56,303 nt of DNA from a virus (IMGVR_UViG_3300032216_001772:1-56303), one strand, 5' to 3'. Numbered from the stretch's first letter, positions 42,025 to 55,189 are shown. Numbers and translations: made by a program. The notes: generated from the letters alone by a model not told the origin.

Positions 42025-42026
42025 CT

Positions 42027-42185: not shown

Positions 42186-42211
42186 AGTACTTCTAGTATA
42201 TCATTTATTAT

Positions 42212-42399: not shown

Positions 42400-42702
42400 T
42401 TAGTTTCCTAGTTTTTGAATAATAAGTTTCATAACATCGTCAATTTTAGTTTCCAACTTATCAAGTCTTTTGTCGAATCTTTCGTCTTCTTCATGTTGGC
42501 GTTCTATAATTTCTAATTGTTTTGTTTCAAGCCGTGTAACTTGATCCTTTATAGAGGTTCCACCATTTGGCTTTAGTTCATGCCTGATATCATCCATACC
42601 TTCTTTTACATGGTATTTTACAAAGAATCTAACTGCAGCCAAAATAGCTGTAAGTATACCTACGCTACCTAAAATAATTGGGATCCACTCGTACCAAAGC
42701 AT
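42400..42702 (-). CDS. Membrane protein with coiled coil (lysis/holin-associated type)
   Basis: N-terminal transmembrane helix, then ELKPNGGTSIKDQVTRLE, a motif common in actinophages. Confidence 0.75.
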   Translation of the reverse strand: MLWYEWIPIILGSVGILTAILAAVRFFVKYHVKEGMDDIRHELKPNGGTSIKDQVTRLETKQLEIIERQHEEDERFDKRLDKLETKIDDVMKLIIQKLGN

Positions 42703-43085
42703 GATATATCCAGTATATAGTATTATTTAAAATAATTAAGCTCGCTTTTTGTCGGCGGTATATTTCGGCGGCAAGAAGTACTCCATATACTTGTCCAAAC
42801 TATCCAAAATGGAAATATGGACAAATAAATATGATATCGAAGCATTTGTACAAATCGAATATTTGTGATATCCTTATATCGACCCCAGTCATGCCAGCAG
42901 GTTTGATAACAAATCGGAAACCAGCATAACCCCAAATAGGATTGCTCTCTAGTAAAAGTAATAACTTTAATAGGGAGCTTTCTTATTTGATCAATAGAAG
43001 TAATATTACTTGATGTTTGATCAAGACAGCCTTTGGCTGTTGTTATACCCCGAAAATAATGCATCCGAAGTGTTATACTTGATAT

Positions 43086-43316
43086 ATGGAAAACAAAGAA
43101 GATGATGGTCATGAACATGAATCAGATGTAAAGTTTCTTGATTTATTTAATCCAAATGCACCTAGATCAGATGAAGATTTAATCAAAGATAGACTTGAGA
43201 TTTGTAATGCTTGTGAATGGTTAAGAAAATCATCACAGCGTTGTCGTAAGTGTGGTTGTTTCATGACATTAAAAACAACATTAAAACAAGCTAAGTGTCC
43301 ATTAGGTAAATGGTAA
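43086..43316 (+). CDS. Small Cys-rich protein (DUF6171-like)
   Basis: RLEICNAC..RCRKCGCFMTLKT..AKCPLGKW; leaderless (TGTTATACT-N6-ATG). Confidence 0.8.
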   Translation: MENKEDDGHEHESDVKFLDLFNPNAPRSDEDLIKDRLEICNACEWLRKSSQRCRKCGCFMTLKTTLKQAKCPLGKW

Positions 43317-43337
43317 TATCTTTGCTATAATAAATAT

Positions 43338-43469
43338 ATGTGTAATGGAAATTGTACTTGTGATACCCCCGAAGTTCTAAAATATGATCTATCAGAAGAT
43401 TGCAAATGCATCTTTGATGGTGATCCAGAACTTTGTATTTGTATCAATATTGATGAACCCACAGCTTAA
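43338..43469 (+). CDS. 43-aa Cys-rich peptide
   Basis: TGCTATAAT-N6-ATG; MCNGNCTCDTPEVLKYDLSEDCKCIFDGDPELCICINIDEPTA. Confidence 0.6.
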   Translation: MCNGNCTCDTPEVLKYDLSEDCKCIFDGDPELCICINIDEPTA

Positions 43470-43479
43470 GGAGAGAAAC

Positions 43480-43653
43480 GTGGATCCAGTTAAGAATAAA
43501 CTTTATCAGGATAAGACCTGGCTTGCTACTGAGCTTGAAACTAAGTCTACCCGAAAAATTGCTAAAGAACAAAGAGTTAGCTATAAGCTAATCAATGTAT
43601 GGGCTTTGAACTATGGACTTATTAAGCGATCAGAAGAAACAGTTGTTGCATGA
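43480..43653 (+). CDS. Small helix-turn-helix DNA-binding protein
   Basis: AAGGAG RBS, GTG start; KLYQDKTWL...STRKIAKEQRVSYKLINVWALNYGL. Confidence 0.75.
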   Translation: MDPVKNKLYQDKTWLATELETKSTRKIAKEQRVSYKLINVWALNYGLIKRSEETVVA

Positions 43654-43763
43654 TTAATAAATTATCTACCTTGCAAAAAATAGGATTATGTGTTGCAGGA
43701 TTTGTAGTTATCATTGGTGTTGATCTGCTTATTATTATGCTTGCTAAAGCTTTTGGTGCATAA
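43650..43763 (+). CDS. 37-aa membrane peptide
   Basis: ATGA overlap with the HTH gene; MINKLSTLQKIGLCVAGFVVIIGVDLLIIMLAKAFGA. Confidence 0.6.
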   Translation: MINKLSTLQKIGLCVAGFVVIIGVDLLIIMLAKAFGA

Positions 43764-43865
43764 TCTGAAAAATTGTATTTGGAGAAATCTGAATAATTTT
43801 TAGAGATGTATGATGTGGGTCTACAGAATAAATACAAACATTTATATAGTGAGCACACCAAGATC

Positions 43866-43928
43866 GACTACACACCCCTTGATTCTTTTGACTACACACC
43901 CCTCGATTCTTTTGACTACACACCCCTC
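43866..43928 (+). repeat. 24-bp tandem repeat (about 2.6 copies)
   Basis: GACTACACACCCCTYGATTCTTTT at 43866 and 43890, partial at 43914; a further GACTACAC at 43950. Confidence 0.95.
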
Positions 43929-43975
43929 AAATTTCTCAAACTATTTTGTGACTACACGGCGTGTCGCCTTTTCAT

Positions 43976-43997
43976 TGTCTGTCGTGCATGATAGGTT
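43976..43997 (+). promoter_or_regulatory. PafBC/RecA-NDp-like promoter 1
   Basis: TGTCTG-N10-TAGGTT. Confidence 0.7.
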
Positions 43998-44026
43998 ATA
44001 GATAACAACAAAGAATGGATAACAAA

Positions 44027-44164
44027 ATGAAGTGTGAAGTATGTGACTACTTTGACGCTAATGAAGTCATGGTATACAAAACAGAAATACTAAATCTGTC
44101 TATGGTAGTCATGTGTGACTATTGCTTTAGCGAGATAAAGGAGATGAAGAATGCAACGGTCTAA
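44027..44164 (+). CDS. 45-aa Zn-finger protein
   Basis: MKCEVCDY...MCDYCFSEIKEMKNATV, directly after promoter 1. Confidence 0.7.
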   Translation: MKCEVCDYFDANEVMVYKTEILNLSMVVMCDYCFSEIKEMKNATV

Positions 44165-44276
44165 GGCGTACTATATCACTAGGTCTATCGCTAGGCTATT
44201 GGTCATGTGCATACAGGCTGGTCTTATCATCACTGGTATGTATTGGTTTATACTGTTTGCATGGTCACTGTCATAG
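44151..44276 (+). CDS. 41-aa membrane peptide
   Basis: AAGGAG RBS; MQRSKAYYITRSIARLLVMCIQAGLIITGMYWFILFAWSLS. Confidence 0.65.
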   Translation: MQRSKAYYITRSIARLLVMCIQAGLIITGMYWFILFAWSLS

Positions 44277-44361
44277 GCGTGTCGCCTTGACATACCCCTG
44301 GATCGAGGCCCGGCCGCCGTTACCAAATTGTTATAATAAACATGCCATATAGGCTTTTCAT

Positions 44362-44383
44362 TGTCCGATGTCGATGTTAGAAT
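44362..44383 (+). promoter_or_regulatory. PafBC/RecA-NDp-like promoter 2
   Basis: TGTCCG-N10-TAGAAT. Confidence 0.75.
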
Positions 44384-44405
44384 GTAGACATAAGCAAAGA
44401 GAGAA

Positions 44406-44446
44406 TGAGCCTAGCAAATAATCCGCAAGGTGAGCCTAGCAAATAA
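44406..44446 (+). repeat. 16-bp direct repeat in a 5' leader
   Basis: TGAGCCTAGCAAATAA at 44406 and 44431. Confidence 0.9.
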
Positions 44447-44474
44447 GTCTCTCAATAAAGAATAGGAAATAGAA

Positions 44475-44669
44475 ATGACATTAGCAGAAACAGGAATCAA
44501 GCAAGACTTGACTATCGGTAACGTAGTTGCCATTAGCCGTAAAGGTGTAATCCGTGCAAGCGGAATTATCGAATCAGTAAAGCAAATCAACCAAGACCGT
44601 TTTGACGTAACATTCACTAACGGAAAGACTGAGTCAATGGTATGGGGAAAGACGCTCACGGTAGTTTGA
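44475..44669 (+). CDS. 64-aa small beta-barrel (SH3/KOW-like) protein
   Basis: QDLTIGNVVAI...GIIESVKQ...FDVTFTNG pattern; AGGA RBS. Confidence 0.75.
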   Translation: MTLAETGIKQDLTIGNVVAISRKGVIRASGIIESVKQINQDRFDVTFTNGKTESMVWGKTLTVV

Positions 44670-44670
44670 G

Positions 44671-44692
44671 TGTCAGACCCTCATGTTAGAAT
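44671..44692 (+). promoter_or_regulatory. PafBC/RecA-NDp-like promoter 3
   Basis: TGTCAG-N10-TAGAAT. Confidence 0.8.
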
Positions 44693-44716
44693 AAAAACAA
44701 CAAGAAAGGAAAACTA

Positions 44717-44860
44717 ATGTATATAGTAGAAGTAATCAAGAAGGGTATCGGAGTCGTTGAGACTTTCGGTTCACGGTCTAAGGCAGAAGCAGAAGCACAA
44801 AAGAACGCTTATGCTCTCATGTATCCTGACCATGTAGTCATGATGGAATGGTCAAACTAG
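44717..44860 (+). CDS. 47-aa hypothetical protein
   Basis: GAAAGGAAAACTA-ATG; MYIVEVIKKGIGVVETFGSRSKAEAEAQKNAYALMYPDHVVMMEWSN. Confidence 0.75.
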   Translation: MYIVEVIKKGIGVVETFGSRSKAEAEAQKNAYALMYPDHVVMMEWSN

Positions 44861-44943
44861 GGCGTGTCAACTTGACATACCCGAAATTTTGGGCCGGGCG
44901 ATCCGGCCGCCTGTGGATAACTTTTACGTTGCTACGATTTCAC

Positions 44944-44965
44944 TGTCAGACCCTCGTGTTAGAAT
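44944..44965 (+). promoter_or_regulatory. PafBC/RecA-NDp-like promoter 4
   Basis: TGTCAG-N10-TAGAAT. Confidence 0.8.
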
Positions 44966-44991
44966 GAAGACATAAAGAAAGGAAAACTAAA

Positions 44992-45177
44992 ATGGAAACT
45001 ATGACAAAAATGATTCGGACTCAGGGAATCGGTGATGGCTTCACCGTAATCAACCCACAGGATGGATACCGTAAAGATAACACTATCTGGAACGGTACTT
45101 GCTCTGAGTGTGGTGAGCGAGTGTATAACTCAATCATGACTAACTACAAATGGAAACACCAGACCAAATGCGTTTGA
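44992..45177 (+). CDS. 61-aa hypothetical protein with CxxC
   Basis: GAAAGGAAAACTAAA-ATG; GTCSECGERV...WKH. Confidence 0.75.
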   Translation: METMTKMIRTQGIGDGFTVINPQDGYRKDNTIWNGTCSECGERVYNSIMTNYKWKHQTKCV

Positions 45178-45178
45178 G

Positions 45179-45200
45179 TGTCCGTGGCTTGTGTTAGAAT
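45179..45200 (+). promoter_or_regulatory. PafBC/RecA-NDp-like promoter 5
   Basis: TGTCCG-N10-TAGAAT. Confidence 0.75.
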
Positions 45201-45225
45201 AATATCAAATGAAAGGAAAACTAAA

Positions 45226-45348
45226 ATGAAAGAATGTTTCTTGTGTGATGCTGGCACTCTTGCCACTACTGTATCACCATACAACTACCCTGTTTGTGCT
45301 AGTCACTACAGCGAAGACATCCGTGAATTCGCTACCGACTATTCATAA
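45226..45348 (+). CDS. 40-aa Zn-finger protein
   Basis: GAAAGGAAAACTAAA-ATG; MKECFLCDAG...PVCASHYSED (CxxC and CxxH). Confidence 0.75.
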   Translation: MKECFLCDAGTLATTVSPYNYPVCASHYSEDIREFATDYS

Positions 45349-45374
45349 ACCATAAACAACGAAAGGTAAAACTA

Positions 45375-45536
45375 ATGACAAATCACGACCGTATCTCAGG
45401 AATCCTAGAGACAATCCGAATTGCTAAGGGTGCAGACTCTCACGCTGACGTTATGCCCTATGTCATCGGCATGATGACCGCCGTCCTCAACGACTCACAA
45501 CTTGAGGCTATGGAAGAGGTAGCCCAGCAATACTAA
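45375..45536 (+). CDS. 53-aa hypothetical protein
   Basis: GAAAGGTAAAACTA-ATG; MTNHDRISGILETIRIAKGADSHADVMPYVIGMMTAVLNDSQLEAMEEVAQQY. Confidence 0.75.
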   Translation: MTNHDRISGILETIRIAKGADSHADVMPYVIGMMTAVLNDSQLEAMEEVAQQY

Positions 45537-45617
45537 CATATTCCAGAAATGGAATGTGGGCCGGGATGGATCCGGCCGCCCAGTTACGAAATGACATTAA
45601 AAACCCTGGACTTTCAT

Positions 45618-45639
45618 TGTCCGACGTATCTGTTAGTCT
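45618..45639 (+). promoter_or_regulatory. PafBC/RecA-NDp-like promoter 6
   Basis: TGTCCG-N10-TAGTCT. Confidence 0.75.
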
Positions 45640-45667
45640 TGTATTACAAACAACGAAAGGATAACTA

Positions 45668-45856
45668 ATGCGATTCGACCCTATTTTTGGTGAGGCTAAC
45701 GAGATTGTTGGCTACCTCGACGACATGGGCAACGAGTGGACTGTCGAGCAAGTCGAGGACTACTGGGATGTCTCAGGCAACGAGCCTGACGGCATGTGGC
45801 TTGATGAGGACGCTCTTAACTCTGTTGGCTGGGGTAGTGACGAGGCTTATTTCTAA
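45668..45856 (+). CDS. 62-aa highly acidic protein
   Basis: GAAAGGA RBS; 17 D/E against 1 R and no K; ends DALNSVGWGSDEAYF. Confidence 0.8.
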   Translation: MRFDPIFGEANEIVGYLDDMGNEWTVEQVEDYWDVSGNEPDGMWLDEDALNSVGWGSDEAYF

Positions 45857-45925
45857 ACTACTCACAGGGGGGGGCCGGGACCGTTATCAGATCGTTACAT
45901 TGAATTACGTCTATTACGTTTTCAC

Positions 45926-45947
45926 TGTCAGTCGCTCATGTTAGTAT
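45926..45947 (+). promoter_or_regulatory. PafBC/RecA-NDp-like promoter 7
   Basis: TGTCAG-N10-TAGTAT. Confidence 0.8.
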
Positions 45948-45971
45948 TGTAATATAACGAAAGGAAAACTA

Positions 45972-46139
45972 ATGGAAGAAAAAATACTGGTATCGGTTTG
46001 GGTGCTCAATCAGTGGATTGAAAACGCTCGTGGTGAGGAAAAGCACTGGGCAGAGCAGGGCAATATCGCTATGGAAAACTACTACGCTAGTCGTGCTCGT
46101 GCTTTTGAGTTTATTCTCTCTGAGTTTAGAAACAACTAA
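45972..46139 (+). CDS. 55-aa hypothetical protein
   Basis: GAAAGGAAAACTA-ATG; MEEKILVSVWVLNQWIENARGEEKHW... Confidence 0.75.
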   Translation: MEEKILVSVWVLNQWIENARGEEKHWAEQGNIAMENYYASRARAFEFILSEFRNN

Positions 46140-46157
46140 AGAAAAGGACACACTAAA

Positions 46158-46337
46158 ATGATGACACGCAAAGACTATGTTTCGACTGCTAAGATTCTCA
46201 ATGATTTATGGTATGATTTGCCAATCAGTAACATTGAGCTATTTGAGGATACCGTTATGGCTTTCTCTAAGATGTTTGCAGAAGATAATGAACGATTCGA
46301 CCACAAGATTTTTTATAACGCTTGTTTCAAGGAGTAG
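46158..46337 (+). CDS. 59-aa phage protein (MTRKDY...DNxRFD...AC type)
   Basis: AAGGA RBS; MMTRKDYVSTAKIL...FAEDNERFDHKIFYNACFKE. Confidence 0.8.
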   Translation: MMTRKDYVSTAKILNDLWYDLPISNIELFEDTVMAFSKMFAEDNERFDHKIFYNACFKE

Positions 46338-46407
46338 TATCCTCCCTTTCGGGGGCCGGGCCTCGTTACCAAATCGTTACATTGGATTAAGGACATTACG
46401 TTTTCAT

Positions 46408-46429
46408 TGTCAGACCCCTGTGATAGTAT
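46408..46429 (+). promoter_or_regulatory. PafBC/RecA-NDp-like promoter 8
   Basis: TGTCAG-N10-TAGTAT; ATG 6 nt downstream (leaderless). Confidence 0.8.
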
Positions 46430-46435
46430 TTAGTT

Positions 46436-46597
46436 ATGAAGAAGAAAACGAAACCCCAGAAGATTGCCAACACCGCATACATTATTGCTATGCGTGAGTT
46501 GCGTAAGTCAAATGCGGCTACTACTCACGACAACCGACCTAACCGTCAGAGGACTCGTGGGGCAATCAAGCAAGTAGCAATCAAGGAGTTTGCATAA
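46436..46597 (+). CDS. 53-aa basic protein, leaderless
   Basis: MKKKTKPQKIANTAYIIAMRELRKSNAATTHDNRPNRQRTRGAIKQVAIKEFA. Confidence 0.75.
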   Translation: MKKKTKPQKIANTAYIIAMRELRKSNAATTHDNRPNRQRTRGAIKQVAIKEFA

Positions 46598-46746
46598 TGG
46601 ATATGAGAACAAAGAATCGTATTCGTGAACACACAGGCGATGAGCATTGGCTAGTCACGATAAGTAATCATTCGGTACAGCGTGAAGGAAAATCATTGTT
46701 CATGTGTATCTGTGGCTGGCGTGGCTGGCTTGATAATCAGTCGTAA
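46597..46746 (+). CDS. 49-aa hypothetical protein
   Basis: AAGGAG RBS, TAATG overlap; ends FMCICGWRGWLDNQS. Confidence 0.7.
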   Translation: MDMRTKNRIREHTGDEHWLVTISNHSVQREGKSLFMCICGWRGWLDNQS

Positions 46747-46758
46747 TCTTGATACAAT
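46730..46758 (+). promoter_or_regulatory. Sigma-A type promoter for the tRNA pair
   Basis: TTGATA-N17-TACAAT, 8 nt before tRNA-Asp. Confidence 0.7.
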
Positions 46759-46766
46759 GAAGTAAT

Positions 46767-46842
46767 GGCTCTGTAACTCAGTGGTTAGAGTGCCACCCTG
46801 TCACGGTGGAAGTCGCCAGTTCAAGTCTGGTCAGAGTCGCCA
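46767..46842 (+). tRNA. trnD: tRNA-Asp(GTC)
   Basis: Acceptor GGCTCTG/CAGAGTC, anticodon arm CCACC-CTGTCAC-GGTGG, T loop GTTCAAG, encoded CCA. Confidence 0.95.
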
Positions 46843-46843
46843 T

Positions 46844-46915
46844 TCCCCTTTAGCTCAACGGCAGAGCAACGCACTGTTAATGCGTAGGTTCTTGGTTCGA
46901 ATCCAAGAGGGGGAG
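46844..46915 (+). tRNA. trnN: tRNA-Asn(GTT), CCA not encoded
   Basis: Acceptor TCCCCTT/AGGGGGA, anticodon arm ACGCA-CTGTTAA-TGCGT, T arm CTTGG-TTCGAAT-CCAAG. Confidence 0.95.
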
Positions 46916-46938
46916 CAAGGATCCGGCCTCACTTTCAC

Positions 46939-46960
46939 TGTCAGAGGTAGGTGTTAATCT
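46939..46960 (+). promoter_or_regulatory. PafBC/RecA-NDp-like promoter 9
   Basis: TGTCAG-N10-TAATCT. Confidence 0.75.
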
Positions 46961-46986
46961 TGTATTACAACGAAAGGAAAAATATC

Positions 46987-47166
46987 GTGGCTTATGTGTC
47001 TGAGTATGGTAATTATGGCAGTGAGGGAGTGATTGTATTCCCAGACTATCAACTTACCCCCGAACAATGGGATGAGTTAGATGTTCTGCCAGACAACGAC
47101 AAAATGTCGTATGTTAAGGGTATACTGGATGAAAACGAACTAGGATATATGGAGTTTAACGACTAA
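46987..47166 (+). CDS. 59-aa acidic protein
   Basis: GAAAGGAA RBS, GTG start; AYVSEYGNYGSEG...LTPEQWDELDVLPDNDK. Confidence 0.75.
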   Translation: MAYVSEYGNYGSEGVIVFPDYQLTPEQWDELDVLPDNDKMSYVKGILDENELGYMEFND

Positions 47167-47345
47167 TGAAACGTGAATCATTTATTCCACCTAAAGGAAT
47201 GTCAGAAAAAGAGTTTCTCTCTATAGTTGCAAATGACCTATTGGACATGGTAATATTAGGTGAGGTAAACTTTACCTATGTTCCTTCTGCTCGTGACTTT
47301 ATTGTCAAGTATGGAACACCTCGACACCGAAAGGGTAGAAAATGA
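47166..47345 (+). CDS. 59-aa hypothetical protein
   Basis: TAATG overlap, GGAG RBS; MKRESFIPPKGMSEKEFLSIVANDLL... Confidence 0.65.
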   Translation: MKRESFIPPKGMSEKEFLSIVANDLLDMVILGEVNFTYVPSARDFIVKYGTPRHRKGRK

Positions 47346-47485
47346 AAAGTAATCCATTCCCCGATGATGAACAGGCTACCGAAATTATGGAAGCACTAGA
47401 TGACTACTATGCTAATCCACAAGACTATTCGTTTCGTGACCTTGAGGAAATCTTCCAAGACCGTGACCCATTTGAGTTTCTCTAA
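47342..47485 (+). CDS. 47-aa acidic protein
   Basis: ATGA overlap; MKSNPFPDDEQATEIMEALDDYYANPQDYSFRDLEEIFQDRDPFEFL. Confidence 0.7.
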   Translation: MKSNPFPDDEQATEIMEALDDYYANPQDYSFRDLEEIFQDRDPFEFL

Positions 47486-47493
47486 GGAGTAGT

Positions 47494-47700
47494 ATGCCCA
47501 AGTATCGCATAAAGGCGACGGTAACGGTAGAAATGTATCTACCTGATGACTTTGACCCCAATAGGGATAACGAAGGAGACATCCTCTATTCCCTTGATGG
47601 ATATATTCGTGAAGATGGTGTAGACGGTTGGAGACTGTGGAAAGCCGCATTGGCTGACAATGGTATGTGGCATAACGATGCAGACTACAAGGTGATTTGA
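47494..47700 (+). CDS. 68-aa hypothetical protein
   Basis: AAGGAG RBS; MPKYRIKATVTVEM... Confidence 0.75.
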   Translation: MPKYRIKATVTVEMYLPDDFDPNRDNEGDILYSLDGYIREDGVDGWRLWKAALADNGMWHNDADYKVI

Positions 47701-47759
47701 TGGAACCTTGGATAATTATTGTTTTGGCTATTTGTGTGATGGCTATCTTCTTCGCTTAG
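47700..47759 (+). CDS. 19-aa hydrophobic micropeptide
   Basis: TGATG overlap, AAGGTG RBS; MEPWIIIVLAICVMAIFFA. Confidence 0.5.
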   Translation: MEPWIIIVLAICVMAIFFA

Positions 47760-47788
47760 GCGGAGGGGATCGGCCCGGCCGCTTTCAC

Positions 47789-47810
47789 TGTCAGAGGTGG
47801 ATGTCATAAT
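47789..47810 (+). promoter_or_regulatory. PafBC/RecA-NDp-like promoter 10
   Basis: TGTCAG-N10-CATAAT. Confidence 0.7.
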
Positions 47811-47835
47811 GGTATTACAACGAAAGGAAAACGTA

Positions 47836-48330
47836 ATGGGCTTGGATATGTATTTAGAGGTTCGCAAGTTTGTCGAAACCCACGATTGGGTAAACGAGAA
47901 CGGCGAGTTTGTTCGTAAGGAAACTGAAGGTGCAGAGGCTATCAAGGTTGCAGGTCTTGAGAACCTTACTTCGAAAGATGCTGTTGGCATTACTGTTCAG
48001 ACTACCGCCATTTACTGGCGTAAGGTAAACGCTATTCACAACTGGTTTGTCAACACCTGTGCCAATGGTGTAGACGAATGTCAGCAGATTTCTGTAGACC
48101 GTAGCAAGTTGCAAGCCTTGCGTGACCAAGTAGAGTTGGTTGTTCGCAAAAAGAATCCAGCAGTTGCTCAAGAGTTTTTGCCAACCTCATCAGGTTTCTT
48201 CTTTGGCTCAACTGAGTATGACGAGTGGTATTGGTCAGATATGCAATTCACTCTTGATGAACTCAACCGTGTGTTGTCTGAGACGACGGACTCATATGGG
48301 ATTGACTTCTTCTATCAGGCTTCCTGGTAG
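47836..48330 (+). CDS. Conserved phage protein (MGLDMYL...YWRKxNAIHxWF...GFFFG...YQASW family), function unknown
   Basis: GAAAGGAA RBS before ATG 47836; recognisable family motifs. Confidence 0.85.
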   Translation: MGLDMYLEVRKFVETHDWVNENGEFVRKETEGAEAIKVAGLENLTSKDAVGITVQTTAIYWRKVNAIHNWFVNTCANGVDECQQISVDRSKLQALRDQVELVVRKKNPAVAQEFLPTSSGFFFGSTEYDEWYWSDMQFTLDELNRVLSETTDSYGIDFFYQASW

Positions 48331-48401
48331 ACAGACGAGGGGTGCGACTCGCTAACGCATAACCCTTCGGGGGCCGGGCCGCTTGATCTTGCAAGTTTCA
48401 C

Positions 48402-48423
48402 TGTCAGTGGTCAATGTTACGAT
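48402..48423 (+). promoter_or_regulatory. PafBC/RecA-NDp-like promoter 11
   Basis: TGTCAG-N10-TACGAT; ATG 6 nt downstream (leaderless). Confidence 0.8.
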
Positions 48424-48429
48424 AAGTAT

Positions 48430-49152
48430 ATGACAAAGTTGATTCGCTCAAAAGACCGTAAAGTAACCAATGCTGTAACGCCTAATGGCAAGCAAGCCTC
48501 TATCGCTAACACTTTTGGTTTGCCTTCTGGCACTGCTTTTTCATGTCCAGGTGCTACTAGCGTATGCGAAACTATCTGCTACGCTGGCAAGTTGGAAAAG
48601 GTATTTAAGGGTGTGCGTATCAACCTCGAACACAACTGGGCATTAGTCAAAGACGCTGACTATCTTACTATCTATGACCTCATTTATGAAATGATTAGTG
48701 ATTTTGTTGCTGATTGCGAACGTCGTGGTGCAGAAAAGTTGTTCCGCATTCACTGGGACGGTGACTTCTTTAATGAAGAGTACACATACGCATGGCGTGA
48801 TGTTATCTGTGAGTTTGAGGATGTTCAGTTTTGGGCATACACTCGTAGTGCTTTTGCTGTGCCTATCCTAATTGACATTCCTAACCTTGGCTTTTATTTC
48901 TCAACTGATAGTGCTAACAAAGATTTGGCTGTCTCTCTCAAAAAAACTCACGGTATCAAGTTGGCTTACCTTGCTCAGACATTTGCTATTGGTAAGGCTG
49001 ACATTCTTGAGATTACTGGTGAGTCTGCTATCCCATGCCCCGAAAATAACAAAAAGATTCCTATGATTAGCGAAAAGGGTAGTGCCTGTGTTACCTGTGG
49101 GCAATGTATCTTCCAACGCAATGACATTCTATTCTCTGCTACTAAAAAGTAG
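48430..49152 (+). CDS. Gene product 88 (GP88)-like Cys-cluster protein (radical-SAM-like)
   Basis: SCPGATSVCETICYA, FRIHWDGDF, FWAYTRS, CPE...ACVTCGQC. Confidence 0.8.
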   Translation: MTKLIRSKDRKVTNAVTPNGKQASIANTFGLPSGTAFSCPGATSVCETICYAGKLEKVFKGVRINLEHNWALVKDADYLTIYDLIYEMISDFVADCERRGAEKLFRIHWDGDFFNEEYTYAWRDVICEFEDVQFWAYTRSAFAVPILIDIPNLGFYFSTDSANKDLAVSLKKTHGIKLAYLAQTFAIGKADILEITGESAIPCPENNKKIPMISEKGSACVTCGQCIFQRNDILFSATKK

Positions 49153-49239
49153 TGGAGGGTGGGCCGGGGATCCGGCCGCCCACCCCTAATGTTACGATTG
49201 TGTTACGAAACGCTGAAAATAGCCCACAGGACTTGATAT

Positions 49240-49261
49240 TGTCCGTGGTTTCTGTCATACT
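49240..49261 (+). promoter_or_regulatory. PafBC/RecA-NDp-like promoter 12, with overlapping TTGATA -35
   Basis: TGTCCG-N10-CATACT. Confidence 0.7.
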
Positions 49262-49325
49262 AGATATATCAGCAAGACCGCTGGTAATTAGGTTGGCTGG
49301 CTCGCCAACAGAAATGAGGAAGCAA

Positions 49326-49472
49326 ATGAACGCAGTAATCGGAGAAACCTTCACCACGCAGAAGTCTGGCGTATCGGGAACGGTTCAGGAGATTATCAAG
49401 AACTCCAACGGTTCGACTCGTATCCGCTTGTCGCTTGCTAACGGCGACAGCCGTTGGACTACGGTCAAGTAA
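49326..49472 (+). CDS. 48-aa small beta-barrel protein
   Basis: GAGG RBS; MNAVIGETFTTQKSGVSGTVQEIIKNSNGSTRIRLSLANGDSRWTTVK. Confidence 0.8.
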   Translation: MNAVIGETFTTQKSGVSGTVQEIIKNSNGSTRIRLSLANGDSRWTTVK

Positions 49473-49489
49473 GGTCAGACCCTAGTCTG

Positions 49490-49516
49490 CTTGCTGGGCA
49501 TCAAGTCAAACTGCCC
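49490..49516 (+). ncRNA. Candidate H-type pseudoknot element A
   Basis: CTTG-CTGGGCAT-CAAG-TCAAAC-TGCCC; stems CTTG/CAAG and GGGCA/TGCCC. Confidence 0.5.
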
Positions 49517-49551
49517 ACTCAAATCCAAAAGCCAAATGAAAGGAAAACATA

Positions 49552-50001
49552 ATGGCTCGTTCGCTCTCTGTGAAGATTCCCACCGCAAGTCTTATTGCTG
49601 ACGTAGAGGCAAGCATCTCTGACCTTGAGGCTAAAATTGCTACCTACCCTGTTGATATGGAAGCATACCGTGTAGCAACCAAGGCACACCAAGATGTTGT
49701 TCTCAAGACCGTTATCGAGGCTCTCAAGAACCCTGATAATGTTGGTGACGAATATGGCTCTATTGTTCGTGTTCAGCAAAATCGTTATGGTCGTAATGGT
49801 GTAGAGATTGAGGTAAACACCGATTTGCTCGGTATCCCACAGCCTCCTGAGTGTCCCTCTAACCCAAATGCCAAAGAGTCGTTTGGTCGTGACTACACTA
49901 CTCGTCTTGACTTGCTGAAGAAGAACCTCAAGGTTCTCAAGATGACAAACCAGGAAGAAGTCAATGCCTCAACCTACAATACGGTGATTGACCTCCTCTA
50001 G
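49552..50001 (+). CDS. 149-aa hypothetical protein
   Basis: GAAAGGAA RBS; MARSLSVKIPTASLI...EEVNASTYNTVIDLL. Confidence 0.85.
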   Translation: MARSLSVKIPTASLIADVEASISDLEAKIATYPVDMEAYRVATKAHQDVVLKTVIEALKNPDNVGDEYGSIVRVQQNRYGRNGVEIEVNTDLLGIPQPPECPSNPNAKESFGRDYTTRLDLLKKNLKVLKMTNQEEVNASTYNTVIDLL

Positions 50002-50036
50002 ATTCCATACGCCCCATAAGGGATATGTGGAAAAAT

Positions 50037-50064
50037 GACCTGAGTAGGTCTATGTAAACTGCTC
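50037..50064 (+). ncRNA. Candidate H-type pseudoknot element B
   Basis: GAC-CTGAGTAG-GTC-TATGTAAAC-TGCTC. Confidence 0.5.
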
Positions 50065-50194
50065 ACCTCTCCCCTGTGAAGCGTCTGGATAGATTGCTGG
50101 TAAACAGGGGAGGGGAGCCGGGTAGATCAGATCCGGCCCCCGAATGTAACAATTAGGTTACGATGTTATGAAAAATAGGCCTGAGACTTGATAT

Positions 50195-50216
50195 TGTCAG
50201 ACGTTTCTGTCATACT
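50195..50216 (+). promoter_or_regulatory. PafBC/RecA-NDp-like promoter 13, with overlapping TTGATA -35
   Basis: TGTCAG-N10-CATACT; ATG 6 nt downstream. Confidence 0.75.
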
Positions 50217-50222
50217 GGGAAT

Positions 50223-50438
50223 ATGGAAAAAGTAAAAGGAACGTATTTTGTTGTGACTGGTGAGTCTTACTATGTAAAGGCTGACTCTGAAGATGAGGCT
50301 GAGGCTATCTTCAATGTAGGTATGGGATATATGGATGAGTCTAACTATCCTGACTTTGATACCGCCGATGCTTTCAACCGTATCGAGTATACTGATACCT
50401 ACACCACTTATGAGCCTATCACTGATTTCAGTGTCTGA
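50223..50438 (+). CDS. 71-aa acidic protein, leaderless
   Basis: YYVKADSEDEAEA motif. Confidence 0.8.
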   Translation: MEKVKGTYFVVTGESYYVKADSEDEAEAIFNVGMGYMDESNYPDFDTADAFNRIEYTDTYTTYEPITDFSV

Positions 50439-50453
50439 GGCTACTGTTAGACT
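50432..50453 (+). promoter_or_regulatory. PafBC/RecA-NDp-like promoter 14
   Basis: TGTCTG-N10-TAGACT. Confidence 0.7.
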
Positions 50454-50477
50454 AGTAACATAACGAAAGGGAAAAGA

Positions 50478-50735
50478 ATGATTGACAAAGCATTTGCTTT
50501 ACAGGTAGCGGTTCGTGATTCTGCTTTTGCTCCGTCTGTAAAGATGTCTGCTCTGCTTATCCGTGATGGGTATCAGAACATGACTCAGAAAGAGATGGAG
50601 TCTGCTCTCATGGCACTTGTGTCTGAGGCTGTTTGCGTTTCTTCCTACCAAACCACGATGGTTCTTCTTGACGAGGAAGAACAGAACACACTCGCAAAAA
50701 CGATTGACGAACTACAGGGAATGGGGAACGAATAA
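50478..50735 (+). CDS. 85-aa hypothetical protein
   Basis: GAAAGGG RBS. Confidence 0.8.
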   Translation: MIDKAFALQVAVRDSAFAPSVKMSALLIRDGYQNMTQKEMESALMALVSEAVCVSSYQTTMVLLDEEEQNTLAKTIDELQGMGNE

Positions 50736-51220
50736 TGATGGACTATGAAGACATTGAGGTAAAAGATTTGCCAGCCTCACCTACCTTGGTGGGTATTGAG
50801 TCTGGAGCCTTTACCAAACTTGGTGAACTTGAGGCAGAACTTGAGGGTGTCAAGGCAGAACTGGATGCCTCTCGTGCAAACGCTGAGGATTGGTCTAACC
50901 GTCACACCTATATCTATAACCAACTTGGTGAACTACAGGAAAAACTCAAGAAGGCTTTGACCGAATTGGTTTCTTCTGGTTCCATTGAAAAGGAACACGC
51001 AAAGACCATTGCAGACGAATGTGGTCTTGAGGTTACTAAGTATGTTGGTGTGACTGGAAACATTTCATTCTCTGCAAATGTCGAGGTATCGGTATTTGAT
51101 GAAGATGATTTGGATACCTACAGTTTCAGTGCTTCATACCTGAGTCTTGACTATGATGGCGAGGCTGTCGAAGACTTGCAGTATGACATTGAGAATGTTG
51201 AAGAGGACTATAAGTATTAG
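50735..51220 (+). CDS. 161-aa acidic coiled-coil protein
   Basis: TAATG overlap; heptad region LEAELEGVKAELDASR; very acidic C-terminus. Confidence 0.8.
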   Translation: MMDYEDIEVKDLPASPTLVGIESGAFTKLGELEAELEGVKAELDASRANAEDWSNRHTYIYNQLGELQEKLKKALTELVSSGSIEKEHAKTIADECGLEVTKYVGVTGNISFSANVEVSVFDEDDLDTYSFSASYLSLDYDGEAVEDLQYDIENVEEDYKY

Positions 51221-51274
51221 GCCTTGAAGCTAGGGTAGGGACTTGTTAATTCCTTTCTTAGCCTCTACCCTCAC

Positions 51275-51301
51275 GGACCTGAGCATGTCCTTAAAAGGCT
51301 C
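51275..51301 (+). ncRNA. Candidate H-type pseudoknot element C
   Basis: GGAC-CTGAGCAT-GTCC-TTAAAAG-GCTC. Confidence 0.5.
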
Positions 51302-51384
51302 ATTCTCATGCCCAGGGGGGCCGGGCCGATCCGGCCGCCAATGTAACAATCATGTTACGATGATTAAAAATATGCCCCTGAGAC

Positions 51385-51413
51385 TTGTAATTATTTTAGT
51401 TTTGTGTCATACT
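51385..51413 (+). promoter_or_regulatory. Sigma-A type promoter of the DUF932 gene
   Basis: TTGTAA-N17-CATACT with TG extension; lacks the TGTCNG element. Confidence 0.65.
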
Positions 51414-51449
51414 GATATAAGTAAGCAAACCTCTAACGAAAGGCAATAT

Positions 51450-52472
51450 ATGTCACACGAATTGGAACAGGGTCAGAACGGCGAGGTTGCTTTTGCATCC
51501 TTCCGTGAACCTGCTTGGCATGGTCTTGGGACTGTGTTCGAGGAAGAAGTAAAGACAGCAGATATGCTGAAATTGGCACATCTTGACAACTGGAATGTTC
51601 GCCTTGAGGAGATTCCTATTCCCGAGGGATTTGTCTCTGACAAGACTAACTATTTTGTTGCTCGCACTAACCCCTTCAACGCTGAGCAGAATGACATTCT
51701 TGGAATTGTCGGGCAACGCTACAATACGCTTCAGAACGAATCGCTTTTTGAGTTTGGTGATAACCTGCTTGACGGTGGTGGACGTTGGGAGACGGCTGGC
51801 TCTATCAAGGGTGGTCGTGTTGTGTTTGGTGCTTTGGCACTTGAGCGTGAAACGGTGCTTGACCCTAACGGTGTAGCCGACAAGGTAAACACTTACCTAT
51901 TGGTAAACACATCGCACGATGGGTCGGTGTCCATTATGGCGAGCATTACGCCTGTGCGTGTTGTGTGTGCGAACACTCTGAACATGGCTATCGGTTCAGG
52001 CACAGGACATTGGCGTAACGCTAAGCAGTCGTTCAAGATTCGTCACACTCAGACGGCTGAGGGTCGTGTTCAGGCTGCTCGTGAGGCTCTTGGTCTTGCC
52101 AACGAATACATGGACGAGTTTGATAAAATGGCTCAGGCTATGATTGAGACAGAAATCACGAATGACAAGTTCCAGGAGATTCTTCGTGCCGTCTACCCCA
52201 TGCCCGAAAAGGATGCTAAGGGTGCTATGTCAAAGTGGCAGACAAAGTTGGAACTCATCGAGGACATCTACGGTGGACAGTTCAACAACACGATTACAGG
52301 AACGGCTTGGGGTGCATTGAACGGCATCACCGAACGTCTTGACTGGTATCGTGCAGGACGCAAGGGCAACAGCGAAAGCGTGTTGGCTTCTGCTTCTGGC
52401 TTCGACCCTGCTATCAACGCTGAGAAGAATCGTATTCTCAAGATTGTTCAGGAACTGACAATGGCTTCCTAG
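51450..52472 (+). CDS. DUF932 / TIGR03299-type phage-plasmid protein (340 aa)
   Basis: MSHELE...REPAWHGLG, WETAGSIKGGRVVF, NTSHDGS, TPVRVVCANTL, IRHT, GTAWGALNGITE; GAAAGG RBS before ATG 51450. Confidence 0.92.
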   Translation: MSHELEQGQNGEVAFASFREPAWHGLGTVFEEEVKTADMLKLAHLDNWNVRLEEIPIPEGFVSDKTNYFVARTNPFNAEQNDILGIVGQRYNTLQNESLFEFGDNLLDGGGRWETAGSIKGGRVVFGALALERETVLDPNGVADKVNTYLLVNTSHDGSVSIMASITPVRVVCANTLNMAIGSGTGHWRNAKQSFKIRHTQTAEGRVQAAREALGLANEYMDEFDKMAQAMIETEITNDKFQEILRAVYPMPEKDAKGAMSKWQTKLELIEDIYGGQFNNTITGTAWGALNGITERLDWYRAGRKGNSESVLASASGFDPAINAEKNRILKIVQELTMAS

Positions 52473-52652
52473 TCGGTGACTCCCTGCCCTCCCTTGTGGA
52501 GGGTGGGGGGGCCGGGCGATCAGATCCGGCCTCTACTTAGTATATAGATAATCATCTAAATCTAATTACGAAGAAGTAAAAAAATCCCTGGATATTCCAA
52601 CAAACGGAAGAAAAAATTAGGTAATCCGAACCTTTCATGTCATACTGTATAT

Positions 52653-52754
52653 ATGAATGAATTTGAGATAGAGATGAAAGTTATACTGTCAGAGGCTCTT
52701 GATATACTTGAGAGACTATCAGATGAAGATATAGAAAGGTTGTATATTTCCTAA
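52653..52754 (+). CDS. 33-aa acidic peptide, leaderless
   Basis: TGTCATACT-N6-ATG; MNEFEIEMKVILSEALDILERLSDEDIERLYIS; TAATG overlap with next gene. Confidence 0.5.
   Translation: MNEFEIEMKVILSEALDILERLSDEDIERLYIS
52687..52708 (+). promoter_or_regulatory. PafBC/RecA-NDp-like promoter 15
   Basis: TGTCAG-N10-TATACT. Confidence 0.7.
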
Positions 52755-52930
52755 TGGGTAAGTATTATATCAAGACTATGGTTGAGTGGTCAGGCGAGGT
52801 TTATGCCGATACCGCCGAGGAAGCCGAGAAGATGGGTTGGAACTGGGATACAGAACTCATGTATGACGGAGTGTATTCTATCGATGTAGAGGTTGTCGAT
52901 GAAGATGATGACGAAGACGAAGCCTTGTGA
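52754..52930 (+). CDS. 58-aa acidic protein
   Basis: GAAAGG RBS; MGKYYIKTMVEWSGEVYADTAEEAEKMGW...DEDDDEDEAL. Confidence 0.75.
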   Translation: MGKYYIKTMVEWSGEVYADTAEEAEKMGWNWDTELMYDGVYSIDVEVVDEDDDEDEAL

Positions 52931-53027
52931 CGATTGCCAAGCACCTGTTGACGCAGATGTTTGGGTAGAGGAATTAGGCATGTGTATTGATTGTTCAGAT
53001 AAGTATTGGAGTCATGAAGATGAGTAA
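52899..53027 (+). CDS. 42-aa Zn-finger protein
   Basis: GAGG RBS; KPCDDCQAPVDADVWVEELGMCIDCSDKYW. Confidence 0.65.
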   Translation: MKMMTKTKPCDDCQAPVDADVWVEELGMCIDCSDKYWSHEDE

Positions 53028-53181
53028 GTATAAGATTATTGTTGAAGAGGTTGGCACAGCCATCGTTGAGATTGAAGCCGAAGATGAGTTTGTGGCTGAA
53101 GACATTGCTATCGATATGTGGGGCAATGGCGACCTTGATGGTTTGATGATGCGTGATGTGTCTGTGACGGTGGAACACTAA
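53020..53181 (+). CDS. 53-aa acidic protein
   Basis: GGAG RBS; MSKYKIIVEEVGTAIVEIEAEDEFVAEDIA. Confidence 0.75.
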   Translation: MSKYKIIVEEVGTAIVEIEAEDEFVAEDIAIDMWGNGDLDGLMMRDVSVTVEH

Positions 53182-53414
53182 TGGCTAAGCCAAAGGTAGC
53201 CGACCAAACATGGAGGCGAATCTACCATTCCAGGGTAGCAGAGGTATACGAATCGGATAGCGAGAACGACTACTACAAGGTAGTACTAGAAGACATGCGA
53301 CCAAAGTATTTCTATGGTGAGTTGGCATTTCAGAATTACCAACGCTATGTATATGACTTTGAGATGGCTACCCTGTACTCACAGGATAATGCCATGATGA
53401 AGAAGTATCGGTAG
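53181..53414 (+). CDS. 77-aa hypothetical protein
   Basis: TAATG overlap; RPKYFYGELAF. Confidence 0.75.
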   Translation: MAKPKVADQTWRRIYHSRVAEVYESDSENDYYKVVLEDMRPKYFYGELAFQNYQRYVYDFEMATLYSQDNAMMKKYR

Positions 53415-53431
53415 GCGTGGTAAAATAGAAT

Positions 53432-53665
53432 ATGACACCTATTATTTATACTAAACCTAACTGCGTACAGTGTGATGCAACTAAACGTTACTTTGATAAC
53501 AAAGGTGTAGCCTACACTACCGTCGATATTACACAGGACTCAGATGCACTCGATCGACTAATTGCCGAGGGATTCAAAGCAGCTCCTGTTGTTAATATAG
53601 ATACACACTGGTGGAGTGGATTCCAACCAGACTTAATAGATAAACACATAGCTAACTATTCTTAG
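53432..53665 (+). CDS. nrdH: NrdH-like glutaredoxin
   Basis: IYTKPNCVQCDATKR...GFKAAPVV...WSGFQPDLI. Confidence 0.92.
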   Translation: MTPIIYTKPNCVQCDATKRYFDNKGVAYTTVDITQDSDALDRLIAEGFKAAPVVNIDTHWWSGFQPDLIDKHIANYS

Positions 53666-53687
53666 TGTCAGACCCTAATGGTAAGGT
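53666..53687 (+). promoter_or_regulatory. PafBC/RecA-NDp-like promoter 16
   Basis: TGTCAG-N10-TAAGGT; ATG 6 nt downstream. Confidence 0.75.
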
Positions 53688-53693
53688 GGTAAT

Positions 53694-54077
53694 ATGACAG
53701 CAACTATAGACCTATCCTACGATGCGTGGGTAATGAAATACAAGCCTGAGTTAGATTCAGACGGTAGCCCTAAGATGTATGAAACGTATGGTGACGACTA
53801 TGACTATATCGCAGATGTAGACAACGAACACCTTTGGACATGGGTAGACGGAGGCGACTACAGTGTTATTGCTAATGGATTTCACCTTGTTAATCGTTTA
53901 GGCTACTATGTTTGTACCGTGCCATGTAGCACAGACATTTCTGTTGAGGTAGATGTATATGTACCAACAGAGTGTGAAGAAACTGGTAATCATTATTGGA
54001 CAGAGCATGAACGCTATGATGGAACCATAGTGACCATTTGCTCAGAATGCGAGGTAGACAAAGATGGAGAAGAGTAA
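53694..54077 (+). CDS. 127-aa acidic phage protein, leaderless
   Basis: MYETYGDD...WTWVDG...GFHLVNRLGYYVC; C-terminal CxxC. Confidence 0.8.
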   Translation: MTATIDLSYDAWVMKYKPELDSDGSPKMYETYGDDYDYIADVDNEHLWTWVDGGDYSVIANGFHLVNRLGYYVCTVPCSTDISVEVDVYVPTECEETGNHYWTEHERYDGTIVTICSECEVDKDGEE

Positions 54078-54420
54078 GACAATGGGTGAGCAGGCCAACT
54101 ATGACCTGAACATTTACAACAGGGGAGCAGACGAGTCTACCATCCTACCCAAGGAAGATTACTACGATGAGTGGTGGCTATGTCCTTATCAGATTAATGG
54201 AGACATGTCTGGTTATGGCGTAGGAGAAGAGTGTAGTGAATGGAACTTTAAACTAACTGATGAGGAAGCTAAGACTCTTACCCTTGGATGGGGACCTGAG
54301 CTTGGTGGAGACTACACAAACGATAATGATTTCTGGTTAGATAAGAATTCATTCCTAGAAATGTACAAGACCATTCCTCCGAGGGTACAAAGGTATCTTG
54401 ACAGTCTCCCTCCTTACTGA
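54064..54420 (+). CDS. 118-aa acidic hypothetical protein
   Basis: GAGG RBS; ORF track. Confidence 0.75.
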   Translation: MEKSKTMGEQANYDLNIYNRGADESTILPKEDYYDEWWLCPYQINGDMSGYGVGEECSEWNFKLTDEEAKTLTLGWGPELGGDYTNDNDFWLDKNSFLEMYKTIPPRVQRYLDSLPPY

Positions 54421-54426
54421 TACAAT
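54398..54426 (+). promoter_or_regulatory. Near-consensus sigma-A promoter
   Basis: TTGACA-N17-TACAAT. Confidence 0.75.
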
Positions 54427-54435
54427 GGAGAGACA

Positions 54436-54660
54436 ATGAGAATAACCAACAATGAAAAAGCAGCAACTAAGATTCTCGATGCCCTCAATGACCACACACT
54501 AGACACATATATGATTGGATTTCATATCTTTAAGTTTGCTACACTTGACTTATATGTTAAACTAGAAGAAGTAATGGACGGTATTGACAAGGCTATCGAA
54601 GTAGAGAATGAGAGAGTAGAGAAAAAGAATGAACGACGAAAACAAAACGCCCCTTTCTAA
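54436..54660 (+). CDS. 74-aa hypothetical protein
   Basis: GGAG RBS; ORF track. Confidence 0.75.
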   Translation: MRITNNEKAATKILDALNDHTLDTYMIGFHIFKFATLDLYVKLEEVMDGIDKAIEVENERVEKKNERRKQNAPF

Positions 54661-54979
54661 CCAATGTGATATTTTGGCAGAGTTGTGGATTCAGTATAAG
54701 GATGACGAGAACTTTGCAGACTTTATCCAATACAATGATTTGGGCTTGCCTCTTGCCTATGCCTTGTCTAATGGTATTATCGAAGCAAGCGAACGAGCAA
54801 AGGCGTTTGTAGAAGAAACCTTCTCAACCCTTATGTGGGCATTGACTGGTGAAGATGTTGCTGTCACAGACCCTGAAGATGGAAGCGACTACTTTAATAA
54901 GCCAGAGCCTTGGCTAAGTCAAGAGTTCACTACTTTAGAAGATGTGTTCTTGTTCTTTGGAACAGACGTTCCTAACTAA
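54629..54979 (+). CDS. 116-aa hypothetical phage protein
   Basis: CDILAELWIQY..DFIQYNDLGLPLAY. Confidence 0.8.
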   Translation: MNDENKTPLSNQCDILAELWIQYKDDENFADFIQYNDLGLPLAYALSNGIIEASERAKAFVEETFSTLMWALTGEDVAVTDPEDGSDYFNKPEPWLSQEFTTLEDVFLFFGTDVPN

Positions 54980-55107
54980 CTAACACCCTGCCTCCCTTCG
55001 GGGAGGTGGGGCCGGACCCCTCCCAAATACAAATAACCCATATATCAAATAAATAACATTACGAAGGACCTAAAAAAATCGTGGGACTTTTTACGAAAGG
55101 AGATCAA

Positions 55108-55188: not shown

Positions 55189-55189
55189 A

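Follow-up and report, generated by a model that had tools for sequence, protein, structure and literature searches.

Sixteen predicted promoters of PafBC-type architecture in a gene array of an uncultured phage family

Promoters of the PafBC type, which belong to the LexA-independent DNA-damage response, are known only from actinobacterial chromosomes. The PafBC motif found in vivo reads tGTCgg(N10)tA(N3)T and has its upstream part, the "-26 element", at -23 to -28; the promoters described in that article have no -35 consensus, and their GTC triplet, which is contacted by residues R46 and R50 of PafB, is given as strictly conserved across actinobacteria (PMC8635444). According to the same source, nearly all actinobacterial species possess PafBC, the level of which is unchanged upon damage, and the sigma-A holoenzyme by itself fails to recognise PafBC promoters (PMC8635444). 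PafBC is activated by single-stranded DNA (ssDNA; PMC11804915), and a review equates its motif with the older RecA-NDp promoter (PMC8223512). Here, we describe sixteen predicted promoters of this architecture in IMGVR_UViG_3300032216_001772, a linear virus record of IMG/VR that was analysed over its entire 56,303 bases (hereafter the window), where they precede an array of mostly small genes, and we compare them with PafBC promoters and with other described systems. With a CheckV completeness of 52% the record is a phage fragment. A sister contig (G001; 72.8 kb), found by a pattern scan of IMG/VR, overlaps the window at both ends and supplies about 37 kb that are absent from it, giving a joint genome map of about 93 kb.

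The initial annotation had listed sixteen plus-strand sites of the form TGTC(A/C/T)G-N7-TGN-(T/C)ANNNT, and all of them were found at exactly the coordinates claimed (Table 1). An exact scan of the window for TGTCHG-N7-TGN-YANNNT returned 17 matches, 16 on the plus strand and one on the minus strand, whereas 100 dinucleotide-preserving shuffles gave a mean of 0.17 matches and a maximum of 2, none of them reaching 17. The description of the motif as confined to the plus strand therefore stands for the sixteen listed sites, but not for one further, unlisted match on the minus strand at 53916-53937. This match is situated inside the gene at 53694-54077 and has an identical sequence in G001 (25132-25153, minus strand); it could serve as an antisense promoter, or it could be fortuitous and kept by coding constraint. 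The spacer of 10 nt, proposed as invariant, was present in 16/16 sites, and so was the TGn element even when it was left out of the search pattern, which returned the same 16 + 1 sites. TGTC and the G at the sixth position of the box are invariant as well (16/16), and the hexamer downstream is TAnnnT in 13 sites and CAnnnT in three. To read TGTCAGAC as a palindrome was rejected, the TGG, TCC and AGG variants being non-palindromic.

A further constant of the sites, which had escaped the initial annotation, is an A located 7 nt after the hexamer (motif position 28 by position count; 16/16 sites). The four ATG codons that had been noticed 6 nt past the hexamer proved to be genuine starts of open reading frames, at 46436 (53 aa), 48430 (240 aa), 50223 (71 aa) and 53694 (127 aa), and each of these leaderless genes begins on the invariant A, while nine other first genes have a leader of 18-23 nt with a GAAAGGA ribosome site. 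In 77 loci of related phages, 47 of the 566 distinct sites have an ATG or GTG starting at position 28, compared with 0-10 at each of 11 neighbouring positions. Since the A is invariant and start codons cluster on it, it is best read as the transcription start (+1), which places the hexamer at -12 to -7 as the -10 element, makes TGn an extended -10 and puts the box at -28 to -23. As far as sequence can tell, the sixteen sites are thus real promoters, with their putative +1 set by the invariant A and the leaderless starts.

Likeness to the PafBC promoter had been proposed from the geometry of the sites, and it was borne out, as the phage motif agrees at each conserved letter and in the exact 10-nt distance, with the box at -28 to -23. 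Because every conserved letter and the distance are matched, the structural comparison with PafBC promoters is correct, and we designate the sites as predicted promoters of PafBC-type architecture. Both share TGTCnG, the 10 nt and TAnnnT, the placement of the box, a -10 of the sigma-A type and, family-wide, the lack of a -35 element. The phage sites differ in forming an array of 16 within 10 kb, in preceding small genes without assigned function rather than repair genes, in their obligatory TGn and -35-like TTTCAy or TTGATA, in a fifth box base that is never G in the window, and in a preference for an ACC flank after the box in place of TGG.

The promoter type is a property of a large phage family. 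Relatives were gathered from IMG/VR via the GP88-family protein of the array, which has a relative encoded in 592 of 600 candidate stretches, and the best 80 loci were compared. At least two motif matches on the gene strand were carried by 79 of these 80, the reversed controls totalling 1; the exception (L173), a GP88-bearing locus of 52% G+C, lacks the box motif altogether and may reflect a switch of lineage or host that came with another promoter type. G001 holds 16 forward matches against 1 in its control, in the same order as the window sites, and between the two sequences the unconstrained positions drift whereas box, TGn and hexamer are retained. For spacer and logo statistics 77 loci were used (the three closest were left out), with reversed sequence as control. 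TGTCNG-N10-TANNNT occurs there at 727 gene-strand sites versus 13 in the control, while spacers of 6-9 and 11-14 yielded 15-67 sites versus 13-28, so that only a spacer of 10 is enriched; the pattern that requires TGn, with its N7 spacer, gave 460 matches versus 0. TGn is found at 460 of the 797 family box sites and is missing from the other 337. The family logo consists of an A/T-rich stretch (AAAW), TGTCAG, W-S-S, (TG)n-TAnAaT and the A at +1, and no -35 hexamer appears in the logos of these loci. Given the lack of a family -35 and the presence of TGn at only 460/797 sites, the box must do the recruiting at many sites. The family data also define the core of the class as box, 10 nt and -10, and mark TTTCAy and the obligatory TGn as traits of the window lineage. 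A loose 14-base pattern run over IMG/VR hit at least 120 stretches and was uninformative, the matches listed being single sites except for one locus with two.

Concerning the host, G001 encodes a WhiB-family protein (50 bits, cut-off 23.6), a family that is not known outside actinobacteria and their phages. On the grounds of this protein, of the Streptomyces-phage relatives and of the leaderless genes, the host is probably an actinobacterium. The nearest cultured relatives are Streptomyces phages of the Stanwilliamsviridae (cluster BE), with portal proteins 44-45%, capsid protein 44% and G001 DnaE 55% identical. The siphovirus build, the DnaE-type polymerase and a G+C content unusually low for actinophages are common to both groups; however, none of five tested Stanwilliamsviridae has the motif above control, and the window family is uncultured, smaller (~93 kb) and lower in G+C. 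The GP88-family protein matched 390 phage records, 283 of them from Mycobacterium and 101 from Streptomyces phages, and the sole megablast match of the array to cultured phages was 54 nt long, in two Brochothrix phages. Use of the phage RecA as a host finder led to seven contigs (L234-L240), all phage-like and with a RecA 65-81% identical to that of the phage family, in metagenome-assembled genomes (MAGs) titled Methylococcus, Beijerinckiaceae, Bifidobacterium, Aquiluna and Lishizhenia. They probably represent phage sequence that was wrongly binned with bacterial genomes, not hosts, and this route was given up.

From the class of the MAG titled "uncultured Aquiluna sp.", 201 genomes were sampled. 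Five of them, single-contig genomes of 1.4-1.5 Mb, each bear two adjacent WYL genes that represent tandem PafB and PafC homologues. Specifically, genome G142 encodes full-length homologues of solved PafB (7p5x_AY, 9fnd_X; E = 4e-39) and PafC (7p5x_AX, 6sj9), and its PafB keeps R46, R50, K52 and R56, of which R46 and R50 are the DNA-reading residues. The recA promoter of the five genomes reads TGTCAG-TGGCTCC-TGC-TACCTT or a close variant, directly followed by a LexA box (TCGAACagatGTTCGg). All five fit the phage pattern including TGn, and they resemble the site at 48402 (promoter 11; TGTCAG-TGGTCAA-TGT-TACGAT), the nearest to them in the window. PafBC-bearing actinobacteria of comparatively low G+C and with TGTCAG-type boxes thus exist among sequenced genomes, although they are to be seen as candidate host types only. 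Taking these data together, the best candidate for the reader of the box is the PafBC of the host, a reading to which we give about even chances.

Several observations weigh against this reading. The bare TGTCNG-N10-TANNNT is not enriched in the five small genomes (15-19 versus 20-31 in the control), and it is the TGTCRGTG subset alone that stands out, with 9/16 matches in G142. None of ten cultured actinophages (Coruscant, BillNye, Wakanda, Annadreamy, TunaTartare, D29, TM4, phiC31, Bxz1 and Giles, five of them Stanwilliamsviridae) is enriched for the motif, even though their hosts have PafBC. ACC is the commonest flank after the box (206/566 sites), with the host-like TGG at 100/566. No LexA box within 2 mismatches was found near any array promoter, and the genes downstream encode small proteins without known family, a GP88-family protein and a DUF932 protein, with no repair gene attached; the presence of DNA-damage genes and LexA boxes is nevertheless a description of the PafBC regulon and not of the promoter type. 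Furthermore, PafBC needs ssDNA and would for this reason be an unexpected activator of genes that are expressed at the onset of infection. A phage-encoded reader of the box may also exist, most array proteins being without known family. Finally, the segment from -35 to -30 is conserved in the window and in G001 (tTTTCA or TTGATA, with invariant T and A), three of the 16 box sites pass a sigma-70 -35/-10 scan, and a TGn such as that of all sixteen window sites can free a promoter from the -35 and from an activator.

The last three points raise the alternative that the sites are activator-independent extended -10 promoters, used by sigma-A alone with the help of the -35-like element, and that the box has another role, such as that of an operator to which a shut-off repressor binds or of a feature of the spacer. 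Relative to the box, a T at -6 and an A at -2, both overlooked by the initial annotation, are invariant; they form part of tTTTCAy in most sites and of TTGATA in two, the latter at 17 bp from the -10. These elements and the TGn fit such promoters well, and the commonness of extended -10 promoters without -35 in actinobacteria also supports the idea. It is harder to reconcile with a box-to-(-10) distance that is exact to a single base over 727 sites in 77 loci, a spacing for which a repressor site has no need, and with the 337/797 sites without TGn, which in the absence of a -35 from the logos would leave many sites with TAnnnT alone. Moreover, the window box promoters never show a perfect TATAAT and their hexamers are weaker than those of the box-less promoters of the same genome, which have perfect hexamers; weaker hexamers and single-base-exact spacing suggest an additional factor in contact with the polymerase. 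Canonical promoters as a whole are not enriched in the array (33 found, 34.3 expected). We consider the activator-independent explanation unlikely.

Repeated sites are also known from cluster A mycobacteriophages, whose stoperators, numerous and asymmetric, are bound by a repressor and lie between genes, all facing one way. The phage sites resemble them in being numerous, short, asymmetric, of one orientation and placed in short intergenic regions of an actinophage-type genome, and a GP88-family gene is common to both. However, the phage box is locked to the -10 by 10 nt and to the start point, which makes it part of a promoter and not a roadblock as in stoperators; in addition, no integrase was found in the window or G001 and no repressor among the proteins scanned, and D29 is without the box motif. 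A temperate lifestyle with PafBC as induction switch was rejected, neither tyrosine nor serine recombinase domains being detected in the window or G001.

The initial annotation had also called for a WYL protein or a sigma factor to be sought in the rest of the genome, and this check turned out in its favour. Six-frame domain searches of the window and G001, which jointly cover the genome map, revealed no WYL domain and no Sigma70_r2 (PF04542) or Sigma70_r4 (PF04545) match at E <= 1, although a very divergent sigma could escape Pfam. AsiA (PF09010) and MotCF (PF09158) gave no match at E <= 1 either, and tblastn with PafB and PafC of G142 found no homologue in the two sequences (best E = 0.64). 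Recognition of the whole motif by a phage sigma factor or RNA polymerase, as suggested by the habit of phages with many identical promoters to bring their own specificity factor, is therefore highly improbable in our view: besides these empty searches, TGn-TAnnnT and a +1 placed seven nt beyond it are characteristic of a primary sigma.

An adaptor encoded by the phage, made early or injected, presents a different case. Like T4 MotA/AsiA, or like PafBC itself, it would recognise TGTCNG at -26 and connect it to sigma-A, and the array would then be delayed-early and independent of the damage sensor. A precedent is found in the T4 middle promoters, where a MotA box at -30, used by MotA/AsiA, takes the place of the -35, its distance from a good -10 being fixed, and transcription still relies on the primary sigma of the host, as in the phage array; a parallel between PafBC sigma adaptation and these promoters has been drawn, and further factors using sigma adaptation are suggested in the same article (PMC8635444), which would leave room for such an adaptor. 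The present phage differs from T4 in having neither AsiA nor the C-terminal domain of MotA, in the sequence and position of its box and in a host that is probably an actinobacterium. Confinement of the motif to the phage family and its absence from the ten cultured actinophages are as expected of a phage-specific factor, and the dominant ACC flank is unlike host sites. Candidates are at hand among the conserved array proteins without known family, namely a 149-aa protein (71/80 loci), a 59-aa protein (61/80) and a 48-aa protein (76/80), the first two of which have no match in cultured phages, and the perfect extended -10 promoters without box at 43071 and 43323, upstream of the array, could drive an immediate-early operon that includes the DUF6171 gene. 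Pfam and PHROGs, on the other hand, annotated nothing in the array beyond GP88, DUF932, DUF6171 (present in 52/80 related loci) and one weak "DNA binding protein" match, hence no established DNA-binding or sigma-binding domain; the protein behind the weak match (57 aa, 43480-43653; E = 0.0015) was discarded as a reader for the whole family, since only 2/80 loci have it. A confident model of the 149-aa protein (predicted local distance difference test, pLDDT, 82.7) matched no solved structure in the PDB (best E = 0.44, none at E <= 0.001) and showed no evident helix-turn-helix, and in the Atlas this protein falls in viral hypothetical clusters only. The conserved candidates themselves lie behind box promoters, and an independent factor sharing both the hexamer core and the position of PafBC would be a coincidence. 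As these searches disclosed no reader domain, they lend no support to a phage-encoded reader, which we regard as rather doubtful, though as the main rival of host PafBC.

With PafBC of the host as the reader, the array could work as follows. The housekeeping RNA polymerase of the host, of the sigma-A type, would read sixteen strong, co-oriented promoters built of three fixed parts, namely the box at -28 to -23, TGn and the -10 hexamer 10 nt downstream of it, and the starting A 7 nt past the hexamer. The PafB/PafC heterodimer would read the GTC of the box and bridge to region 4 of sigma-A (sigma adaptation), and the array would be switched on or boosted once ssDNA has activated PafBC. Each promoter would fire a short cassette comprising one to four genes, small for the most part, which begin on the +1 A or after a leader of 18-23 nt with the GAAAGGA ribosome site, and most cassettes end in a G+C-rich hairpin. 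The "early" timing and the "host-takeover" role of the array we infer from gene size and position. Tentatively, and with somewhat less confidence than we have in PafBC as the reader, we propose that a widespread family of uncultured actinophages of about 93 kb has wired an array of small takeover-type genes to the PafBC of its hosts, with ssDNA arising from infection or sunlight as the trigger, and that the many boxes, of high affinity and borne on phage DNA under replication, could in addition soak up PafBC and so blunt the damage or anti-phage response of the host.

Table 1. Predicted promoters and associated elements of the window (positions in the 56,303-base record).
Feature	Position	Strand	Sequence traits	Putative +1	Genes downstream and remarks
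Box promoter 1	43976..43997	+	TGTCTG-N7-TGA-TAGGTT	A 44004	first gene 44027-44164
Box promoter 2	44362..44383	+	-10 TAGAAT	A 44390	first gene 44475-44669; passes sigma-70 scan
Box promoter 3	44671..44692	+		A 44699	first gene 44717-44860; 18-nt leader, GAAAGGA ribosome site
Box promoter 4	44944..44965	+		A 44972	first gene 44992-45177
Box promoter 5	45179..45200	+	TGTCCGTGG; host-like flank	A 45207	first gene 45226-45348
Box promoter 6	45618..45639	+		A 45646	first gene 45668-45856
Box promoter 7	45926..45947	+		A 45954	first gene 45972-46139, then family-conserved 59-aa gene 46158-46337
Box promoter 8	46408..46429	+		A 46436	leaderless; ATG of 46436-46597 on the +1 A
Box promoter 9	46939..46960	+		A 46967	first gene 46987-47166 (GTG); directly 3' of two tRNA genes
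Box promoter 10	47789..47810	+	-10 CATAAT	A 47817	first gene 47836-48330
Box promoter 11	48402..48423	+	TGTCAGTGG...TGT-TACGAT		leaderless GP88-family gene 48430-49152
Box promoter 12	49240..49261	+	TTGATA 17 bp from CATACT	A 49268	genes 49326-49472 and 49552-50001 (both family-conserved)
Box promoter 13	50195..50216	+	TTGATA at 17 bp		leaderless gene 50223-50438
Box promoter 14	50432..50453	+		A 50460	genes 50478-50735, 50735-51220 and DUF932 gene 51243-52472
Box promoter 15	52687..52708	+		A 52715	small genes 52754-53665
Box promoter 16	53666..53687	+	-10 TAAGGT		leaderless gene 53694-54077
Box-less canonical promoter	46730..46758	+	TTGATA-17-TACAAT, TGn		precedes tRNA-Asp and tRNA-Asn (46767-46916)
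Box-less canonical promoter	54398..54426	+	TTGACA-17-TACAAT, 11/12 matches, TGn		downstream of the array
Box-less perfect-hexamer promoter	43071	+	TGTTATACT
Box-less perfect-hexamer promoter	43323	+	TGCTATAAT
Box-less perfect-hexamer promoter	44329	+	TGTTATAAT
Box-less perfect-hexamer promoters	near 22300 and 24850	-	TTGTATAAT		ahead of the capsid/portal region (late genes)
G+C-rich hairpin (example)	44892..44908		GGCCGG...CCGGCC, no T tail

Apart from the box promoters, the window has promoters without a box (Table 1), and their presence indicates that the phage has at least two promoter classes and uses ordinary sigma-A promoters too. The G+C-rich GGCCGG...CCGGCC elements number ten, between 44310 and 52531, and eight of them sit 14-78 nt upstream of a box promoter. 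The word GGCCGG has 8 of its 9 genome copies within the array, the elements are often followed by GTTAC-containing repeats, and they are probably terminators or cassette boundaries. Directly upstream of promoter 1, a 24-bp unit, GACTACACACCCCT(T/C)GATTCTTTT, is present at 43866-43957 in three tandem copies, the third of which diverges terminally, and a fourth GACTACAC lies at 43950; these repeats resemble iterons and may belong to an origin or a packaging site or offer a landing pad for a regulator. Another repeat, GGCGTGTC(G/A)(C/A)CTTGACATACCC, has copies at 43958, 44276 and 44861 in the first cassettes, each just past a gene end. Its third copy (44861) holds the inverted repeat TGTCAA-c-TTGACA, and the element could be an operator or a hairpin.

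On the genome map, the virion genes of a siphovirus (portal, capsid protein, head decoration protein and tail fibres) take up about 42 kb on the minus strand. They include a tape-measure protein of 2,918 aa (9039-17795, minus strand), which implies a tail of exceptional length and carries a CW_7 cell-wall-binding repeat close to its C terminus. From about 43 kb the plus strand encodes some 35 genes, mostly small, together with the two tRNA genes, the GP88-family gene and the DUF932 gene; Rfam detected nothing besides the two tRNAs at 42000-56303. Much of the virion block (1-42000) has a G+C content of 29-38% and the promoter array (43900-54000) one of 43-46%, while G001 is more uniform (37-48%). 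The part of G001 beyond the window encodes a DnaE-type polymerase, RecA, a class Ib ribonucleotide reductase (NrdEF), ThyX and the whiB gene, as well as a RimK-like ATP-grasp ligase, a PaaA/PaaC-like di-iron protein, a TIM barrel resembling a sugar-phosphate isomerase and at least four glycosyltransferases. This glycosyltransferase-rich segment may be a module for glycosylation of DNA or of the surface. An HNH endonuclease gene is located at the right end of the window (55669-56247, minus strand); the blastn map of G001 ends at window position 55269, with no G001 match to the stretch of this gene, which is probably a mobile insertion.

None of the titles and abstracts listed by full-text searches on PafBC and phages describes phage promoters of the PafBC type; a 2025 paper in ACS Infect Dis reportedly deals with pafBC and mycobacteriophage resistance. 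The natural variants found here, strong and compact promoters that differ in the presence of TGn, in that of the -35-like element and in having an ACC or a TGG flank, would offer material for dissecting sigma adaptation. If the proposed reading is true, phages, here with an array in a lytic phage and across a large environmental family, exploit the PafBC activator or have evolved an equivalent of their own, and this would be the first virus found to exploit sigma adaptation.

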